Below, in pieces: positions 1,914-26,764 of a stretch of 64,000 nucleotides of DNA (positions are counted from its first letter, which is position 1; every line of letters starts with the position of its first letter). Below the pieces are notes generated by a model. It was not told where the DNA came from. It did not search any database and worked only from the letters and a program-made list of their open reading frames with translations. This DNA is from a virus (lineage: Duplodnaviria > Caudoviricetes). The DNA lies in the IMG/VR virus record IMGVR_UViG_2595698668_000001, positions 64,001-128,000 of that record, one strand, 5' to 3'. The position numbers were made by a program, and so were the translations under genes.

Positions 1914-2591
1914 TTATTCCCCAAAATTGGTATACTTAGATTTAAATTCCATCAGTTTTTCTTTTGCGACTTTTTCTTTTGTAGTGAGGACGTCGATCTC
2001 TTTGGAGATGCTTGTCAATTCACCATTCAGACGATTGTATTCATCATTCAAAACTTTGAATGCATCTTCAATTGATGGTGTAGAAACAGATGTATGTTGC
2101 TCTTTCATATCTTGAGATGGCTCTACCGTACCAAACAACATGTTGATTTCAAGGAGAATTTCAAAATCCACATGAGACTCGACTTCCTTCCTGATAGGGC
2201 GACCATTAGATGTAACTGAATCCTTCGACTTCACAACCTTGAGTTTACCAACAGTCAATCCGTTTGTTACTTGGGCTACGGTAGTAATAAGATGGTGAAT
2301 ATGTCGAGCTACACCAGTCCGGTATGTTTTGGTATTACTTACTTTAATAACAACTGAATTTGATGATTGTTGGAAATCACAAGAATAATTAATATGACCG
2401 TAAACATCAAACGAGGTTCGTGGGCCATATTCCCTCATAAGATTGTGAAGGAATTTTTTGTTTAGGATACGAGCTGTATATGTTGCGGCCTGACGTCCGT
2501 TAAGCGGTTTCCGGTTATCGTTGTATGGGTTTTTGTATACATCAACCTCACCACGAAGATACTGATGTACATATTTTACAAATGAGTTCAT
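1914..2591 (-). CDS. hypothetical protein with C-terminal coiled coil
   Basis: 225 aa; heptad-like C-terminus LNDEYNRLNGELTSISKEIDVL. Confidence 0.7.
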   Translation of the reverse strand: MNSFVKYVHQYLRGEVDVYKNPYNDNRKPLNGRQAATYTARILNKKFLHNLMREYGPRTSFDVYGHINYSCDFQQSSNSVVIKVSNTKTYRTGVARHIHHLITTVAQVTNGLTVGKLKVVKSKDSVTSNGRPIRKEVESHVDFEILLEINMLFGTVEPSQDMKEQHTSVSTPSIEDAFKVLNDEYNRLNGELTSISKEIDVLTTKEKVAKEKLMEFKSKYTNFGE

Positions 2592-2594
2592 AAT

Positions 2595-2795
2595 TTATTC
2601 CTTTTCGTATTTTACAAGTTCACAGTCTAAACGATCTTCTTCAAAAAGAAAAGACATATTTTCTAATTTCCTTTCTTCACAGATCTCTTTGGTGGTTGAC
2701 AGTTCGACTTGGAAAGTCTCACACACAGGATTGTTGTTCATATCGATTACACATGATGTAAGAATCAAAGCAAACAAAGTTTCCATATCAATCAC
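2595..2795 (-). CDS. YebW/DUF1482-like small Cys-containing protein
   Basis: LFALILTSC...C...T.EIC...C pattern resembles YebW. Confidence 0.5.
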   Translation of the reverse strand: MIDMETLFALILTSCVIDMNNNPVCETFQVELSTTKEICEERKLENMSFLFEEDRLDCELVKYEKE

Positions 2796-21670: not shown

Positions 21671-22624
21671 TTATTCACGGGCATTAGTCAACAGAAGTTT
21701 TGACTTAATCTTAGTGATTTGGTTCTTTCGTCCCCGCCAGTGTTTACCACAGTGGGTACATTTATACTGCTTGAACTTACTGACTTCGGTATACGCAAAT
21801 CCAGCATCTTCAAATTCATGATTACCACATACACAAGTGAATTTATCGGAGTCGGTATAAAGAGAGAAGTTCGGAAGGCGATCTGACCATGGAGCCAATT
21901 TAACATACAGTTCTTGGAGAGATACGATATCATCAATATTATATTCTTCCATTTCTTTCCAAGCTTCTACATTACCAGCCAAACATTCTTTCCACAATTC
22001 GAAACCGGGGAATTGAGTATGTTTAGATTTCTTGGTTTCTGTACATAGCTTATCGGTCATATATTCCAGCTTATTGGAAGTAAAACCAAACGTGCGTTTT
22101 GCGATCTCAAGAGTATCAATATGCTTCACGGTAGAGAACGGTTTCATACCATGAACAATCATACGACTGCGAATCTTTGGAATATCAAACCGACGACCAT
22201 TCTGATGAAGAACGATATCTGCTTCATCAAGAAGCTCCCATAGAACTTTCAACATTTCTGAATCGTCTTCGATATTTGGAGCATTTCGCTGATCCATATA
22301 AATGATTTCGTCACTGTCAAACCATTTAGCAGCAAAACTAAGCATATACCAATCGGACTCGATCATATTCAGACCAACGTTGGTCTTAAACAAGCGCCAT
22401 ACATGAGCCATAATCGGGGCAGTTTCAATATCTAGAACTAGAACACGGGGACCGGTTTTGATGTCATCCACGATATTATTCTCTTCCATGAAACGCTCGT
22501 AATAATAGTTTACGGAAGATTTTGAAATACCAAGTTCTTTCGCAATTGCTCGCGAACCCATACCCTTGTTCTCTTTCATCTCGACAATCTGCGAGATGAC
22601 AGTTTCGTAATTACTGATAGCCAT
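21671..22624 (-). CDS. DEDD/RNase H-like 3'-5' exonuclease with N-terminal HTH and C-terminal Zn ribbon
   Basis: GSRAIAKELGISKSSV (HTH); LDIETAP, HQNGRRFDIP, IDTL, YNIDDI; CVCG...CTHCG. Confidence 0.85.
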   Translation of the reverse strand: MAISNYETVISQIVEMKENKGMGSRAIAKELGISKSSVNYYYERFMEENNIVDDIKTGPRVLVLDIETAPIMAHVWRLFKTNVGLNMIESDWYMLSFAAKWFDSDEIIYMDQRNAPNIEDDSEMLKVLWELLDEADIVLHQNGRRFDIPKIRSRMIVHGMKPFSTVKHIDTLEIAKRTFGFTSNKLEYMTDKLCTETKKSKHTQFPGFELWKECLAGNVEAWKEMEEYNIDDIVSLQELYVKLAPWSDRLPNFSLYTDSDKFTCVCGNHEFEDAGFAYTEVSKFKQYKCTHCGKHWRGRKNQITKIKSKLLLTNARE

Positions 22625-22707
22625 TATTTAAAGTACCTTATGTGTTTTGTTATAAACATTATATATCACAATGTACTCATGTTTTGATTTTGATTTTCTC
22701 ATAGGTT

Positions 22708-22727
22708 AAAAGGGGATTACTCCCCTT
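22708..22727 (-). terminator. terminator after rIIB
   Basis: AAGGGGA-gtaa-TCCCCTTTT. Confidence 0.75.
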
Positions 22728-22729
22728 AT

Positions 22730-23923
22730 TTAGAACTCGTGAGTTACGTCTGAGATTACTTCATAAGTCCAAGTACGAAGTTTCGCATTGTTGTAATCAG
22801 TTGGAATAGCAACAACGTGAGCTGGGTTGATCTTAACCATCACAACCCGATCATTCTCACAAGATGAATAGTATGGGATGTAGTGACGAGCAGCAGCATG
22901 AAGACCCGCAGCACAAGTATTGTTTCGGTCGTCATCTACCTCAAATGGCTCGACTCGTGGCTTAGAACCAATACTATTATCAAACGTGCGAGTGCGGATA
23001 TCCATATAATCACCCGTGACGCGCTTGTACGCTAGGAAATGACCATCGTTGGTAATTTTGATGTCACTATGAGTAAGGAAGTCAAAAAGCTCGTATACAG
23101 CCGCACGGCGAGGATTCTGCAACAGATTTTTCAGGAAGATAACCATATACTCAAACTCTTCACCAGACGCCCACATATCAATGATTCGTCGGGTCATCGA
23201 TGTATCAAGAACAATATCACGATAATAGAGTGTGTCGCATTCAATCCGAATATCACCAGAAGAATAGGTTTTTATCGCTTCTTTGATAGAAATCAGGTTT
23301 ACCGCACCGACCACATCATTGTCACGGATCAGGAGTTGAAGCGCATCTTCAAATCGTGGGTGGGCTCGGTCTGCAACGTATGGGGTTCCATCAATGAAGC
23401 AGTTAATAAAGTCATAACTTGCATTCCAAGATACCACTGGGGTATGAACCGGTTCTATGATGTCCTTCAAATGGATTGTTTTATCCGACTTCTTCTGAAT
23501 CCCCTTATAGCGACGAACTACATCACCTACTGTTGAACGAGGGATACCAGTTTGACGGGAAATTTCGTTTTGACTGATTCCTCGATTATGAAGTCGAATA
23601 ATTTTATCATCACGACTTTCTTCAACTTTATTTTCAGAAGAATCATGTACATCAAATTGCAAATCGATTTTATTAGTCCCAACTATCAATTTAATCAATT
23701 CTTTTATTGTAAGAGCTTCCCATCCTTCAAGTACATCGATATCGCCAAGATCTATATCAAGTTCTTCCTCGATATACATAACAAGTTCTACAACATCGAG
23801 ATCGTCTAGGTTATAATATGCAAAAGTTCTATTATTATCAAGTTCTTTTACTTTATGACCACTCACATCGTAAATACCGCTACGAATCAATGCTTCAAGT
23901 TTTTCAATATGGATAGTTTCCAT
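22730..23923 (-). CDS. rIIB: RIIB protein with N-terminal acyl-carrier-protein-like domain
   Basis: C-terminal NLLQNP...ELFDFL...DGHFLAYKRV...FDNSIG...DDDRNNTCAAGLH...IPTDYNNAKLR; internal HTH; aa 1-82 ACP-like. Confidence 0.92.
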   Translation of the reverse strand: METIHIEKLEALIRSGIYDVSGHKVKELDNNRTFAYYNLDDLDVVELVMYIEEELDIDLGDIDVLEGWEALTIKELIKLIVGTNKIDLQFDVHDSSENKVEESRDDKIIRLHNRGISQNEISRQTGIPRSTVGDVVRRYKGIQKKSDKTIHLKDIIEPVHTPVVSWNASYDFINCFIDGTPYVADRAHPRFEDALQLLIRDNDVVGAVNLISIKEAIKTYSSGDIRIECDTLYYRDIVLDTSMTRRIIDMWASGEEFEYMVIFLKNLLQNPRRAAVYELFDFLTHSDIKITNDGHFLAYKRVTGDYMDIRTRTFDNSIGSKPRVEPFEVDDDRNNTCAAGLHAAARHYIPYYSSCENDRVVMVKINPAHVVAIPTDYNNAKLRTWTYEVISDVTHEF

Positions 23924-23947
23924 TTTATTTCCTCATTTAAAAGGGGC

Positions 23948-26182
23948 TTACACCCCTTTGTAGTTTTCCATAATACGTTTAGTTGCAAGTTCGAACTCTT
24001 CGTTTTTTACACAACTATAATTTTTCTTCAACCTAAGAATCGCACATTCCATGGGGAATTGCTTTTTCATTTCGTCATAAAAATTATGATATACATCATA
24101 CATACTCTGACGATAGTTTTCAATGATATCGGTGTAAACTTGATATTCTGGTTCGCTCAAATACTCTTTGGCGTGAACATAAATATTACCAAGATCATGA
24201 TCCCAATCACCGGATTCCGAGACACCAAAATGGTCCTTCATTTCCCGAGTAATTTCCATATCAACCCTTGGCTTATCAGACCTATTGATATTCCAGCCAA
24301 TTTTCTCATCCTTTAAATTGTTATTGAGATATTCAACAAGTTTATCTTTGATCATTTCCTTTGTAACGAGAGCCAAATTCTCATTCATACCAGCCCGTCG
24401 TTCAAGGGTTTTCGGAAGTGCATACAACGTTGTATCAAACACCTCAGACAACCAACTTTGAAGACCATCAGTTACTTCATGACCATCAACAACAATATAT
24501 TCACCAGAACGAAGACCATACAACCCACTAAGCTCGTGTACATCCTTGGCAAGGAAATTGTCAGTACTGCGATACCCTTTATTATAATAATGTGAGTTGT
24601 CGGGTTTGTCTCGTGGAGTTTTAGCCCGATTCCGCTGTGCTTCTAAGCGACGTTGGCGTTTCTCTTCTGCTTCTTTCTCTTCGATCTCTTGAACGTGCTT
24701 ACCATACAATTTCTCAACATGGAAAACATCGATATCATCTTTATGGTAACGTTTTGCAATTTGAATAAACAGATTGCGAGTCACATTCTTGAACGGTTTA
24801 CGAGAATACGGGTAATCACTCATAACGACAACACGTTCATTAGGAATGATACCATACTTCATAAGAAGCTTGATTCTCACCTTCCACTTACCATCCATAT
24901 TAGACAGAAGGATTGGGAATGGATACCGTTTATTTTTTACTGATGGCATGAAGTAATCATTGAACTCGATTTTACGAGACGACCCGTAATATCTTGCGCG
25001 TTCCAGATTCCAAACATTTCGTACAGCATTACTAAATGTATCGATATAAACGAAATTTTTATTTTTGTAATTATAATCTACACAGAAATCTTTAAACAAG
25101 GACCACTCTTTAGAAGATGTAATACTTTCGTAGAAGAAGCGCCAATCTTGAAGAGACTTACCGTTATGGTCAATAATCTTTGATACTTTGTTAAAGATAT
25201 GCTCACCAAAATCCATGGACAAAATAGCATGAATTTTACTTCGAGCATCCTTTCCATGTTCAGAAACCTTCTTATTGACTTCATCAATAACTTGGTCCGA
25301 CTGGGATTTAAAATAAGAATCCAGTGTATTCAGTGTGTGTTTATCAAGACTCAATTCTTCCCGGTTCGGGAGAGGATTGAGAGACCCAACAGGAAAATCG
25401 ATAAAGCTATATGAATTATTAAAGAATACCGAACAAACCTCATTTTCATAAAGCTTAGATGGGATCTTGTAAGAAACACCACCCATAACAGCATACACGC
25501 CATTATCCATGATGGAACCATAGTAACCAGATGACTTGTAGTTAGTCAACTCGAAATTCTGGTTGACGATGTTCGGATAAAACCCATCTTTATCAAATGT
25601 GTGGTACACCGCCCTAGTTTCATTCCGAACTTCTGTAATATCGTCTTGATCGATAGGGATCACGATTTCGATGCCTGTATGCTCGTCTGACGGTTCTTCG
25701 AAGATAGGTACACACTTTGGTATACCGTTGTTCATGAAGATGCTATAGACGGTTTTGAGGCCCTTACACCACGATGTAACAGTGAACGTAGTCGTATAAC
25801 AGAATGGACTTTTAGAACCAAGACCAAACGCACCGATAAAATCGTCAGAATCTTCCTTGGTTGATGCGAAATATGTGGTGAACAAGTTGAAAATACCATC
25901 CTTGTCCATACCAATACCATAATCGCGCAGTCGCCATTGCAAATTAATATCAGACGGAAGCTCTACATCAAAATATTTCGGTGGGACTCCGCCAATCTTT
26001 TCCAGTGCAATGTGACCATCGATTGCGTTACAGCTCAATTCACGAATGAAAGCACGGATCTTAAATTTATAAAGACCGGAACTAAGAATGGTATAAGCTT
26101 TTTCATCAAACTTCATACCGAAATCGCGGGACTCTTCCATAACAGTCCCGAACACAGGTTGCTTATTTGTAACAATTTTCAT
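23948..26182 (-). CDS. rIIA: RIIA protein (GHKL ATPase N-domain)
   Basis: ILSSGLYKFKIRAFIRELSCNAIDGH, RDYGIGM, STK..S...IGAFGLGSKSPF. Confidence 0.95.
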   Translation of the reverse strand: MKIVTNKQPVFGTVMEESRDFGMKFDEKAYTILSSGLYKFKIRAFIRELSCNAIDGHIALEKIGGVPPKYFDVELPSDINLQWRLRDYGIGMDKDGIFNLFTTYFASTKEDSDDFIGAFGLGSKSPFCYTTTFTVTSWCKGLKTVYSIFMNNGIPKCVPIFEEPSDEHTGIEIVIPIDQDDITEVRNETRAVYHTFDKDGFYPNIVNQNFELTNYKSSGYYGSIMDNGVYAVMGGVSYKIPSKLYENEVCSVFFNNSYSFIDFPVGSLNPLPNREELSLDKHTLNTLDSYFKSQSDQVIDEVNKKVSEHGKDARSKIHAILSMDFGEHIFNKVSKIIDHNGKSLQDWRFFYESITSSKEWSLFKDFCVDYNYKNKNFVYIDTFSNAVRNVWNLERARYYGSSRKIEFNDYFMPSVKNKRYPFPILLSNMDGKWKVRIKLLMKYGIIPNERVVVMSDYPYSRKPFKNVTRNLFIQIAKRYHKDDIDVFHVEKLYGKHVQEIEEKEAEEKRQRRLEAQRNRAKTPRDKPDNSHYYNKGYRSTDNFLAKDVHELSGLYGLRSGEYIVVDGHEVTDGLQSWLSEVFDTTLYALPKTLERRAGMNENLALVTKEMIKDKLVEYLNNNLKDEKIGWNINRSDKPRVDMEITREMKDHFGVSESGDWDHDLGNIYVHAKEYLSEPEYQVYTDIIENYRQSMYDVYHNFYDEMKKQFPMECAILRLKKNYSCVKNEEFELATKRIMENYKGV

Positions 26183-26204
26183 AATGTATTTCTCATTTAA
26201 CCTT

Positions 26205-26492
26205 TTAAACTACTTCGAGATAATGATGTACGTCTTCCGGGTAGAAGTGGAACAGAAGCGGTTTATCGATATGGATGATTTCCGCGATTCCAAAATCTCC
26301 GTCATCGTCTTCAATCATGATACAATACTGATGATCTTCCGTTTCGTCAACATAAAATTCTTCAATACCTTCCATATCCAAGAATTTACAGATGGATTCG
26401 TTATAGTTGAATTCCATTTCATCCTCAAAATCCCACGAAGAATTCAGAAATTCCTGTTTATGGTTCTCACTTTTAAACCGGTATTTGTTCAT
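26205..26492 (-). CDS. acidic hypothetical protein (tandem paralog 1)
   Basis: YRFKSE..KQEF...HF...D...YL shared with neighbour. Confidence 0.65.
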   Translation of the reverse strand: MNKYRFKSENHKQEFLNSSWDFEDEMEFNYNESICKFLDMEGIEEFYVDETEDHQYCIMIEDDDGDFGIAEIIHIDKPLLFHFYPEDVHHYLEVV

Positions 26493-26764
26493 TATTCCAC
26501 CTCTACAAGATAGTTTTCGATGTCGGCTTGGCTGAAATGGTAGATCAAGTCTTTCAGTTCATCCGGGGTTTCTTCTAAATCGATTACGTATTTTTCATCA
26601 GGTACAAATGGTACAAGATCAAATTCGTAACGACCAGTCTTTTTAAGAAAATCAACGATCACCTTGTTTGAGTTAATACCACCCTCTTCAAATTCGGTAA
26701 AAACCTCACCAACAGAAATGAACTCTTCTTTCTCATAATCACTTCGGAATTTGTACATACTCAT
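26492..26764 (-). CDS. acidic hypothetical protein (tandem paralog 2)
   Basis: YKFRSD..KEEF...HF...D...YL. Confidence 0.65.
   Translation of the reverse strand: MSMYKFRSDYEKEEFISVGEVFTEFEEGGINSNKVIVDFLKKTGRYEFDLVPFVPDEKYVIDLEETPDELKDLIYHFSQADIENYLVEVE

Follow-up and report, generated by a model that had tools for sequence, protein, structure and literature searches.

The RIIA and RIIB proteins of phages T4 and T6 are described relatives of the system considered here. How they counteract RexAB is still described as unclear, and so is the reason why RIIB, which in the case of T6 suffices on its own, is toxic and sets off CARD-gasdermin systems; a function is known for the T4 and T6 proteins only (bioRxiv 10.1101/2023.05.28.542683; PMC13716836). 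RIIA has been called a GHKL ATPase with a variable C-terminus and RIIB a transcription factor (PMC7824862). T4 no longer stimulates phosphatidylglycerol synthesis when it carries the deletion saDelta9 (between gene 52 and rIIB) or rIIDeltaDD2, and the responsible genes are described as unidentified (PMC6071114); the link of this effect to RIIB is only suggestive. Here we focus on the rIIB gene of a 64,000-nucleotide stretch of viral DNA (positions 64,001 to 128,000 of IMG/VR record IMGVR_UViG_2595698668_000001, Caudoviricetes), hereafter called the window, which is part of a 231,743-bp phage genome. The product of this gene begins with a predicted acyl carrier protein (ACP) fold in which an aspartate replaces the serine that carries the cofactor. 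Literature searches combining rIIB, Aeromonas phage or phage anti-defence with acyl carrier protein or phosphopantetheine returned no description of such an ACP-rIIB fusion. The domain itself is already displayed in databases, since the rIIB of phage ZPAH1 bears a precomputed PF00550 label.

ACPs are also found as bound subunits outside fatty acid synthesis, and several of these insert an acyl-pantetheine arm into their partner. Going by the titles of the PDB entries, such complexes include MukBEF-AcpP (9gm6), NFS1-ISD11-ACP (5usr), MmpL5-AcpM (9dp6/9mvz), EmbA-EmbB-AcpM2 (7bvc), Ycf2-FtsHi (8xks) and complex I, and their ACPs rank among the best structural matches of the domain described here. 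They differ from it in being separately encoded, serine-bearing host proteins, whereas the window domain is covalently built into a phage protein and lacks the arm.

The window rIIB lies directly downstream of rIIA on the same strand, as in T4, with a gap of 24 nucleotides. Its 397-residue product matches PHROG 609 (RIIB) at E 8.7e-104 over aa 59-397, and the 744-residue rIIA product matches PHROG 612 at E 1.9e-160 over aa 1-726. The protein shares 95-97% identity with its counterparts in Aeromonas phages AS-zj, AS-szw, AS-sw, P19 and vB_AdhaM_G2 (Straboviridae, Emmerichvirinae) and 56-57% with those in phages 65, avDM6, ZPAH1 and Aswh_1. In a BLASTP comparison, aa 14-311 of T4 rIIB (312 aa) align with aa 107-397 of the window protein (39% identity over 300 residues, E 5e-70), and nothing in the T4 protein corresponds to aa 1-106; the original prediction, made from the DNA letters and their translation, had stated that T4 rIIB has no such domain. 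Because T4 rIIB aligns only from residue 107 onwards, the ACP domain is an add-on to a helix-turn-helix (HTH) and a RIIB core that both phages share. The HTH of the window protein aligns with the T4 N-terminus and reaches VIA Z scores of about 6 to resolvase and transcription-factor HTHs.

By sequence and predicted structure, the N-terminus of the window rIIB is a genuine ACP-fold domain of about 90 residues and of the fatty acid synthesis (AcpP) type. Within the whole protein, Pfam PF00550 (PP-binding) covers aa 19-79 at 21.6 bits, above the gathering cut-off of 20.8; the score rises to 25.7 bits (E 1.4e-5) when aa 1-82 are searched alone, and a six-frame search of the genome recovers the same domain at 25.1 bits. 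Two PHROG 'acyl carrier protein' families match it (5934, E 1.3e-6; 4154, E 9.1e-5), and all five NCBIfam models that match are FAS-type acyl carrier proteins. When phmmer was run against PDB sequences, E. coli ACP chains came first among the real matches (E 2.1e-5 to 1e-4); three poly-ubiquitin rows ranked above them were rejected as an artefact, being sums of nine sub-threshold repeats of which no stretch passes alone. The peptide that the original prediction had quoted for its comparison with E. coli ACP was located at aa 27-59 of the translation.

AlphaFold2 (AF2) models aa 1-95 with a mean predicted local distance difference test (pLDDT) of 84.5 and a predicted template modelling score (pTM) of 0.75. 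All PDB rows shown by Foldseek for this model are carrier proteins; E. coli AcpP is found at 35% identity and a TM-score of 0.72-0.75 by target length, with an E-value of only 6e-3. VIA-align gives Z scores up to 11.1 (80 residues aligned, root-mean-square deviation (rmsd) 1.9 Å), with carrier proteins in all 50 rows, and a Foldseek-independent search with the full-length model returned the same fold (Z 8.7 to 1vku). The four-helix carrier-protein fold is thus found, in predicted structure. Compared with E. coli AcpP (PDB 4ihf/1l0h/1acp; VIA Z 8.9-9.0 at 33% identity), the window domain has the same fold, a similar size of about 80 residues, an isoelectric point (pI) of about 4 and an acidic helix II of nearly identical pattern. 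It differs in its loop ahead of helix II, which is shorter by one residue, in a short N-terminal strand that the model pairs with a strand after helix IV, in its fusion to another protein and in the residue at the cofactor attachment site.

In the phmmer alignment to 4ihf_G, helix II of the window domain is almost letter for letter that of E. coli ACP, and the same alignment, which sets l-d-d-l-d-v-v-e-l-v-m of the window protein over its ACP counterpart, puts Asp41 (GAT) on the serine of the D-S-L motif. Phosphopantetheinyl transferases need the hydroxyl of this serine. An aspartate in its place means that the domain cannot be phosphopantetheinylated and would carry nothing. The rIIB domain is the only PF00550 match in the 231,743-bp genome, and no gene for a phosphopantetheinyl transferase (PF01648) was found there.

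Comparison among RIIB proteins shows what has been retained. A homologue search within a length range of 218-695 aa gave 174 hits, of which the best 120 clusters were considered, and all stored proteins were also scanned with a hidden Markov model of the domain. Ten of these 120 clusters bear the ACP domain, which with the window protein makes 11; Pfam alone flags 5 of 121 RIIB proteins with the domain at E <= 0.01. The serine position reads D in two (the window rIIB and the AS-szw cluster), G in three (phage 65, avDM6 and the metagenomic P0009), E in four (ZPAH1, P0011, P0013 and P0014) and S in two (P0008 and P0028), so that the serine is lost in 9 of 11; the codons found at this position among the relatives compared are GAT, GGA and GAA. 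Asp41 is kept in all close relatives of the window rIIB, and P0008, which is 71% identical to it and its sister in the tree, retains D-S-L. Helix II presents the opposite picture. Among six lineage representatives its mean pairwise identity is 0.60, against 0.19, 0.19, 0.13 and 0.21 in the four other segments of the domain; 10 of the 12 residues invariant among six fused proteins fall within it, and position 41 is its only freely varying column. Since the position reads D, G, E or S and P0008 still has D-S-L, the serine site is unconstrained, being neither a fixed aspartate substitution nor a phosphomimic, and since helix II stands at 60% identity against 13-21% elsewhere, selection retains the recognition helix and not the cofactor site. 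The change from DSL to DDL noted in the original prediction is therefore real in the window protein, together with the conservation of helix II, but it does not hold as a conserved or designed substitution, and the Ser-to-Asp conservation for which it had suggested a survey of homologues was not borne out in the 11 ACP-bearing proteins.

That the domain is made and under purifying selection is well supported by the sequence data. A Shine-Dalgarno GAGGA stands 7 nt before the ATG at 23923, the annotated start is identical in all six relatives' records opened, and no ribosome site was seen before Met49 on inspection of the sequence. For 85 domain codons, the ratio of non-synonymous to synonymous substitution rates (dN/dS) is 0.15 against AS-szw, 0.14 against AS-zj and 0.12 against G2, compared with 0.07-0.10 in the core, and it lies between 0.12 and 0.18 in four of five close pairs. 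Contigs of all four public runs cover the domain without indels, with codon 41 as GAT in three and as the synonymous GAC in one. Neither the lack of an ACP fold nor a start downstream of the domain, the two findings that the original prediction had named as fatal to it, was encountered: AF2 predicts the fold, and translation from the first ATG is well supported. A promoter-like site within the domain (23841..23813) was rejected, as the region holds 16 such sites against 14.0 +/- 3.9 in shuffled sequences.

The association of ACP with RIIB has apparently arisen more than once. A maximum-likelihood tree was built of 24 RIIB proteins, comprising the 11 ACP-bearing forms and 13 others chosen from the homologues, with the ACP columns kept in. 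All forms with an N-terminal ACP fall into one clade (support 100/97), which also holds P0012, with a different N-terminus, and P0010. Two metagenomic members of 381 and 379 aa, P0013 and P0014 (contigs up to 223 kb), have the order HTH-ACP-core with a different N-terminal HTH sequence, so accessory modules have been reshuffled within this clade. The metagenomic P0028 belongs to the other major RIIB clade (support 95/96). Its RIIB core begins at residue 1, without an HTH, and is followed at aa 395-470 by an ACP domain with D-S-L that exceeds the cut-offs of TIGR00517 and NF002148 (71.6 and 78.6 bits). In its ACP placed after the core, its serine and its clade it differs from the window rIIB, and on this sequence evidence it is an independent second ACP-RIIB fusion with a bona fide AcpP-type domain. 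The architecture is that of a single metagenomic protein; no second one was found, and one viral relative has a Zn-ribbon tail and no ACP.

A search of 50,697 deposited phage records with aa 1-95 gave 16 matches, all in Aeromonas phages and all inside rIIB; the more divergent copies of ZPAH1 and Aswh_1 were missed by it. A query built from the conserved stretch (6-row alignment) found eight viral loci, of which two are known rIIB genes (AS-zj, phage 65) and three of the rest free-standing ACPs, and two loci on metagenome contigs, of which the one examined is an ordinary acpP beside cytochrome genes. No new fused form was seen among the conserved-stretch loci examined, viral or metagenomic. Most likely, judging from these sequences, the ACP domain was acquired by the ancestral form of rIIB in the Aeromonas Emmerichvirinae.

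Serine-less ACP folds seem to be more widespread among phages. Among 1.84 billion library representatives, 12 matched the domain at E <= 1e-3: a phage-65-type rIIB, tandem-ACP and megasynthase proteins, and eight ACP-like proteins of 80-94 aa. The last, free-standing phage proteins of PHROG 5934 and 4154, are the closest by sequence (E 2e-6 to 1e-3); their group includes the BFVD 'carrier domain-containing' proteins of pf16, Motura, phiCbK and ViI. They are separate small genes, whereas the window domain is fused to rIIB, and the eight aligned relatives comprise four with the serine and four that, like the window domain, lack it (E, D, A, A). One serine-less gene of 94 aa, with D-D-L for D-S-L, lies at 2456..2740 of locus L011 on an IMG/VR viral contig of 436,265 bp, and P0125, P0129, P0130 and P0133 are similar serine-less proteins of 80-94 aa. 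The neighbourhood of P0125 (L021) showed no rII gene recognisable by eye, its open reading frames (ORFs) not having been searched against families, and no viral locus was found for P0130.

We consider that the ACP domain probably acts as a cofactor-independent binding module under selection, a reading to which we give slightly better than even odds (about 0.55). A conserved fold and helix, a variable attachment site, the lack of cofactor machinery and a flexible tether are what would be expected of an ACP turned into a binding module. In the proposed sequence of events, an ancestral AcpP-type ACP would have been captured by rIIB and then kept without its cofactor function. The surface kept would be the acidic helix II, through which the partners of ACPs recognise them, and the domain would sit on a disordered linker in front of a T4-like HTH and RIIB core. 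It would thus be a permanent look-alike of apo-ACP, holding RIIB, and thereby RIIA, on a basic ACP-binding surface. The ACPs that serve as bound subunits outside fatty acid synthesis provide a precedent that supports such a docking role; the use of helix II for binding and the nature of the partner are inferred.

As to that partner, our first but tentative choice is a host ACP client located in or close to the inner membrane. In E. coli, apo-ACP that stays unmodified exerts toxicity by inhibiting glycerol-3-phosphate acyltransferase, and a permanent apo-ACP look-alike would therefore be a plausible way to touch lipid synthesis. The original prediction had proposed mimicry of host ACP towards SpoT, MukB, AcpS and PlsB, or titration of ACP-dependent toxins or defences; these targets are putative. 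Roles in cis, such as binding of RIIA or masking of the adjacent basic HTH, are possible as well. Within the general reading of a binding module, RIIA or the RIIB core would be an unlikely partner and the adjacent HTH a still less likely one. The observation behind the original prediction is thus confirmed and its interpretation partly supported.

Several points weigh against a selected, cofactor-independent module. The domain is missing from 110 of the best 120 homologue clusters and from T4, and is hence not needed for the core rII function. P0010 (305 aa, metagenome), inside the phage-65 clade, starts right after the ACP linker and could be either a natural variant lacking the ACP domain or the product of a gene call that is too short. 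The domain scores 27.5 bits against the AcpP equivalog TIGR00517, far below the cut-off of 70.45; it is ACP-derived but does not qualify as AcpP. Its dN of 0.020-0.043 is two to three times that of the core (0.010-0.015), and between phage 65 and avDM6 its dN/dS is 0.68, a value that comes from only 6 synonymous and 17 non-synonymous differences; at sequence level this faster evolution would suit an arms race and a relaxation of constraint equally well. The ACP fold is moreover built around helix II, whose conservation may thus reflect folding alone. As P0008 and P0028 keep the serine, some members may be modified, and cofactor independence may fail for the group as a whole. Finally, the docking reading draws on sequence and a predicted fold, and its partner is putative.

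Among the other explanations, the domain might have its binding site within the phage's rII proteins, either on RIIA (perhaps on the lineage-specific C-terminal half) or on the RIIB core, and so stabilise or regulate the RIIA-RIIB complex without any contact with the host. Of 120 rIIA homologues listed, only six are similar over at least 86% of the protein, including the one encoded on the 42,027-bp contig of P0008 and the Aswh_1 protein; in the others similarity is confined to the N-terminal 30-77% (the GHKL part), from which it follows that the C-terminal half is lineage-specific. Three domain orders combine ACP with the RIIB core, and as one of these has no HTH, the core is the only constant neighbour of ACP, and PHROG 609 also matches the N-terminus of RIIA (aa 18-307, E 3e-66), which suggests that fused RIIA-RIIB forms exist. 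These points are offset by the full-length AF2 model, whose overall pTM of 0.54 with high pLDDT within each domain includes no confident docking of the ACP on the core. The core evolves at a dN/dS of 0.07-0.10 while the ACP domain changes fast, which would be unexpected for a fixed internal interface, and T4 RIIA and RIIB work without the domain. We regard an adaptor within the complex as unlikely.

An ACP gene might also have been fused by accident and have lost its serine, with a folded, functionless extension persisting as a passenger. The loss of the serine in 9 of 11 fused proteins would fit such decay, as would the score far below the AcpP equivalog cut-off, the raised dN with a dN/dS of 0.68 in one pair, the absence of the domain from most RIIB proteins and a possible ACP-less P0010 within the phage-65 clade. 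Yet the domain is kept throughout a clade in which core sequences have diverged by as much as about 50%, dN/dS is 0.12-0.18 in four of five close pairs, helix II holds at 60% identity while the rest drifts to 13-21%, and a second fusion arose independently in another RIIB clade. A decaying passenger is therefore a doubtful explanation.

Least likely is a lid in cis, by which the acidic ACP fold (net charge -13, pI 4.2) would imitate DNA and, tethered by a disordered acidic linker, cover the basic HTH (pI 11.3) for which RIIB was called a transcription factor in PMC7824862, thus gating the binding of DNA or a partner: the two modules are adjacent in both orders, ACP-HTH-core and HTH-ACP-core, but P0028 has an ACP domain and no HTH, AF2 shows no confident ACP-HTH docking, and all ACPs are acidic, so that the charge came with the domain and does not imply selection for such a role.

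The layout of the locus is given in Table 1. The full-length AF2 model (pLDDT 87.3, pTM 0.54) consists of three well-folded modules, the ACP fold (aa 1-90), the HTH (aa 104-140) and the RIIB core (aa 164-397), and of linkers between them whose pLDDT drops below 50 (aa 92-99 and 149-157); the modules are predicted to be arranged as beads on a string, without confident docking. All 13 invariant columns of a 121-row RIIB alignment fall in the core. PF26926 (RIIB) enters here as a precomputed label on homologues. No hydrophobic segment suggesting a membrane span was seen in the rIIB sequence.

Table 1. Features of the rIIA-rIIB locus (window positions)
Feature	Position	Strand	Basis
rIIA, upstream partner gene	23948..26182	-	PHROG 612
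rIIA-rIIB spacer with Shine-Dalgarno GAGGA	23924..23947	-	sequence read
rIIB ORF, 397 aa + stop	22730..23923	-	PHROG 609
ACP-fold domain, aa 1-90, net charge -13, pI 4.2	23654..23923	-	PF00550, phmmer, AF2 + Foldseek/VIA
Helix II region ("recognition helix"), aa 39-56	23756..23809	-	pairwise identity among lineages
Codon 41, GAT = Asp, at ACP phosphopantetheine-serine position	23801..23803	-	alignment to 4ihf_G
Flexible acidic linker, aa 91-103	23615..23653	-	pLDDT <50 at aa 92-99, full-length model
Helix-turn-helix domain, aa 104-145, pI 11.3	23489..23614	-	PF25787/PF13384 at aa 106-142
Conserved RIIB core, aa 164-397	22733..23434	-	39% identical to T4 rIIB; pLDDT mostly >85

A Foldseek search with the RIIB core matched no solved fold. 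Its C-terminal part (aa 284-397, 22733..23072), in which the invariant C337, G340, H342 and Y348 are located, has weak structural matches to rifampin ADP-ribosyltransferase Arr (Foldseek 2hw2, probability 0.47, TM 0.35; VIA 9iaf_A, Z 6.1, 88 residues aligned, rmsd 4.2, 7% identity) and to BC2332 (2aua_B, Z 6.2), all of them within the stated noise range of the tool. The stop codon of rIIA lies within a 7-bp G+C-rich hairpin (23940..23959), which shortly precedes the ribosome-binding site of rIIB and might act in RNA stability or coupling; terminator-like sites in this region correspond in number to chance expectation. The product of the gene after rIIB (21671..22624, minus strand) combines an N-terminal HTH with an RNase H-like 3'-5' exonuclease (PF13482, E 5.5e-15; PHROG 403 'DNA polymerase exonuclease subunit', E 2.6e-115), and phages 65, avDM6 and ZPAH1 carry this gene next to rIIB as well. 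PADLOC gave no match for rIIA, rIIB or P0028, no PHROG family matched the ORFs on the opposite strand (23552..23809 and 23855..24316), and Rfam found no family in 22500..26500.

The repeated, independent joining of ACP and RIIB can be read as a 'Rosetta stone', whereby RIIB in general, that of T4 included, would act on or through host ACP or ACP-dependent membrane-lipid synthesis, some lineages having brought their own serine-less ACP surface. We regard this extension as improbable. If true, it would, seventy years on, say what the rII system acts on at the molecular level, and it would tie in with the abolition of phosphatidylglycerol stimulation by deletions in and beside rII (PMC6071114). 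If the domain is only an optional add-on, phages are still shown to have a family of ACP folds without the serine, some fused and some free-standing. Few genes have been part of molecular biology for as long as rIIA and rIIB, and this domain fusion is one of the few clues to their partners that come from sequence only. The clue is a specific one, consisting of an ACP recognition surface without its cofactor that recurs independently in another RIIB clade. Its carriers include phages in culture (65, AS-zj, ZPAH1 and relatives) whose hosts can also be grown, which brings pull-downs and deletions of the domain within the range of ordinary experiments.

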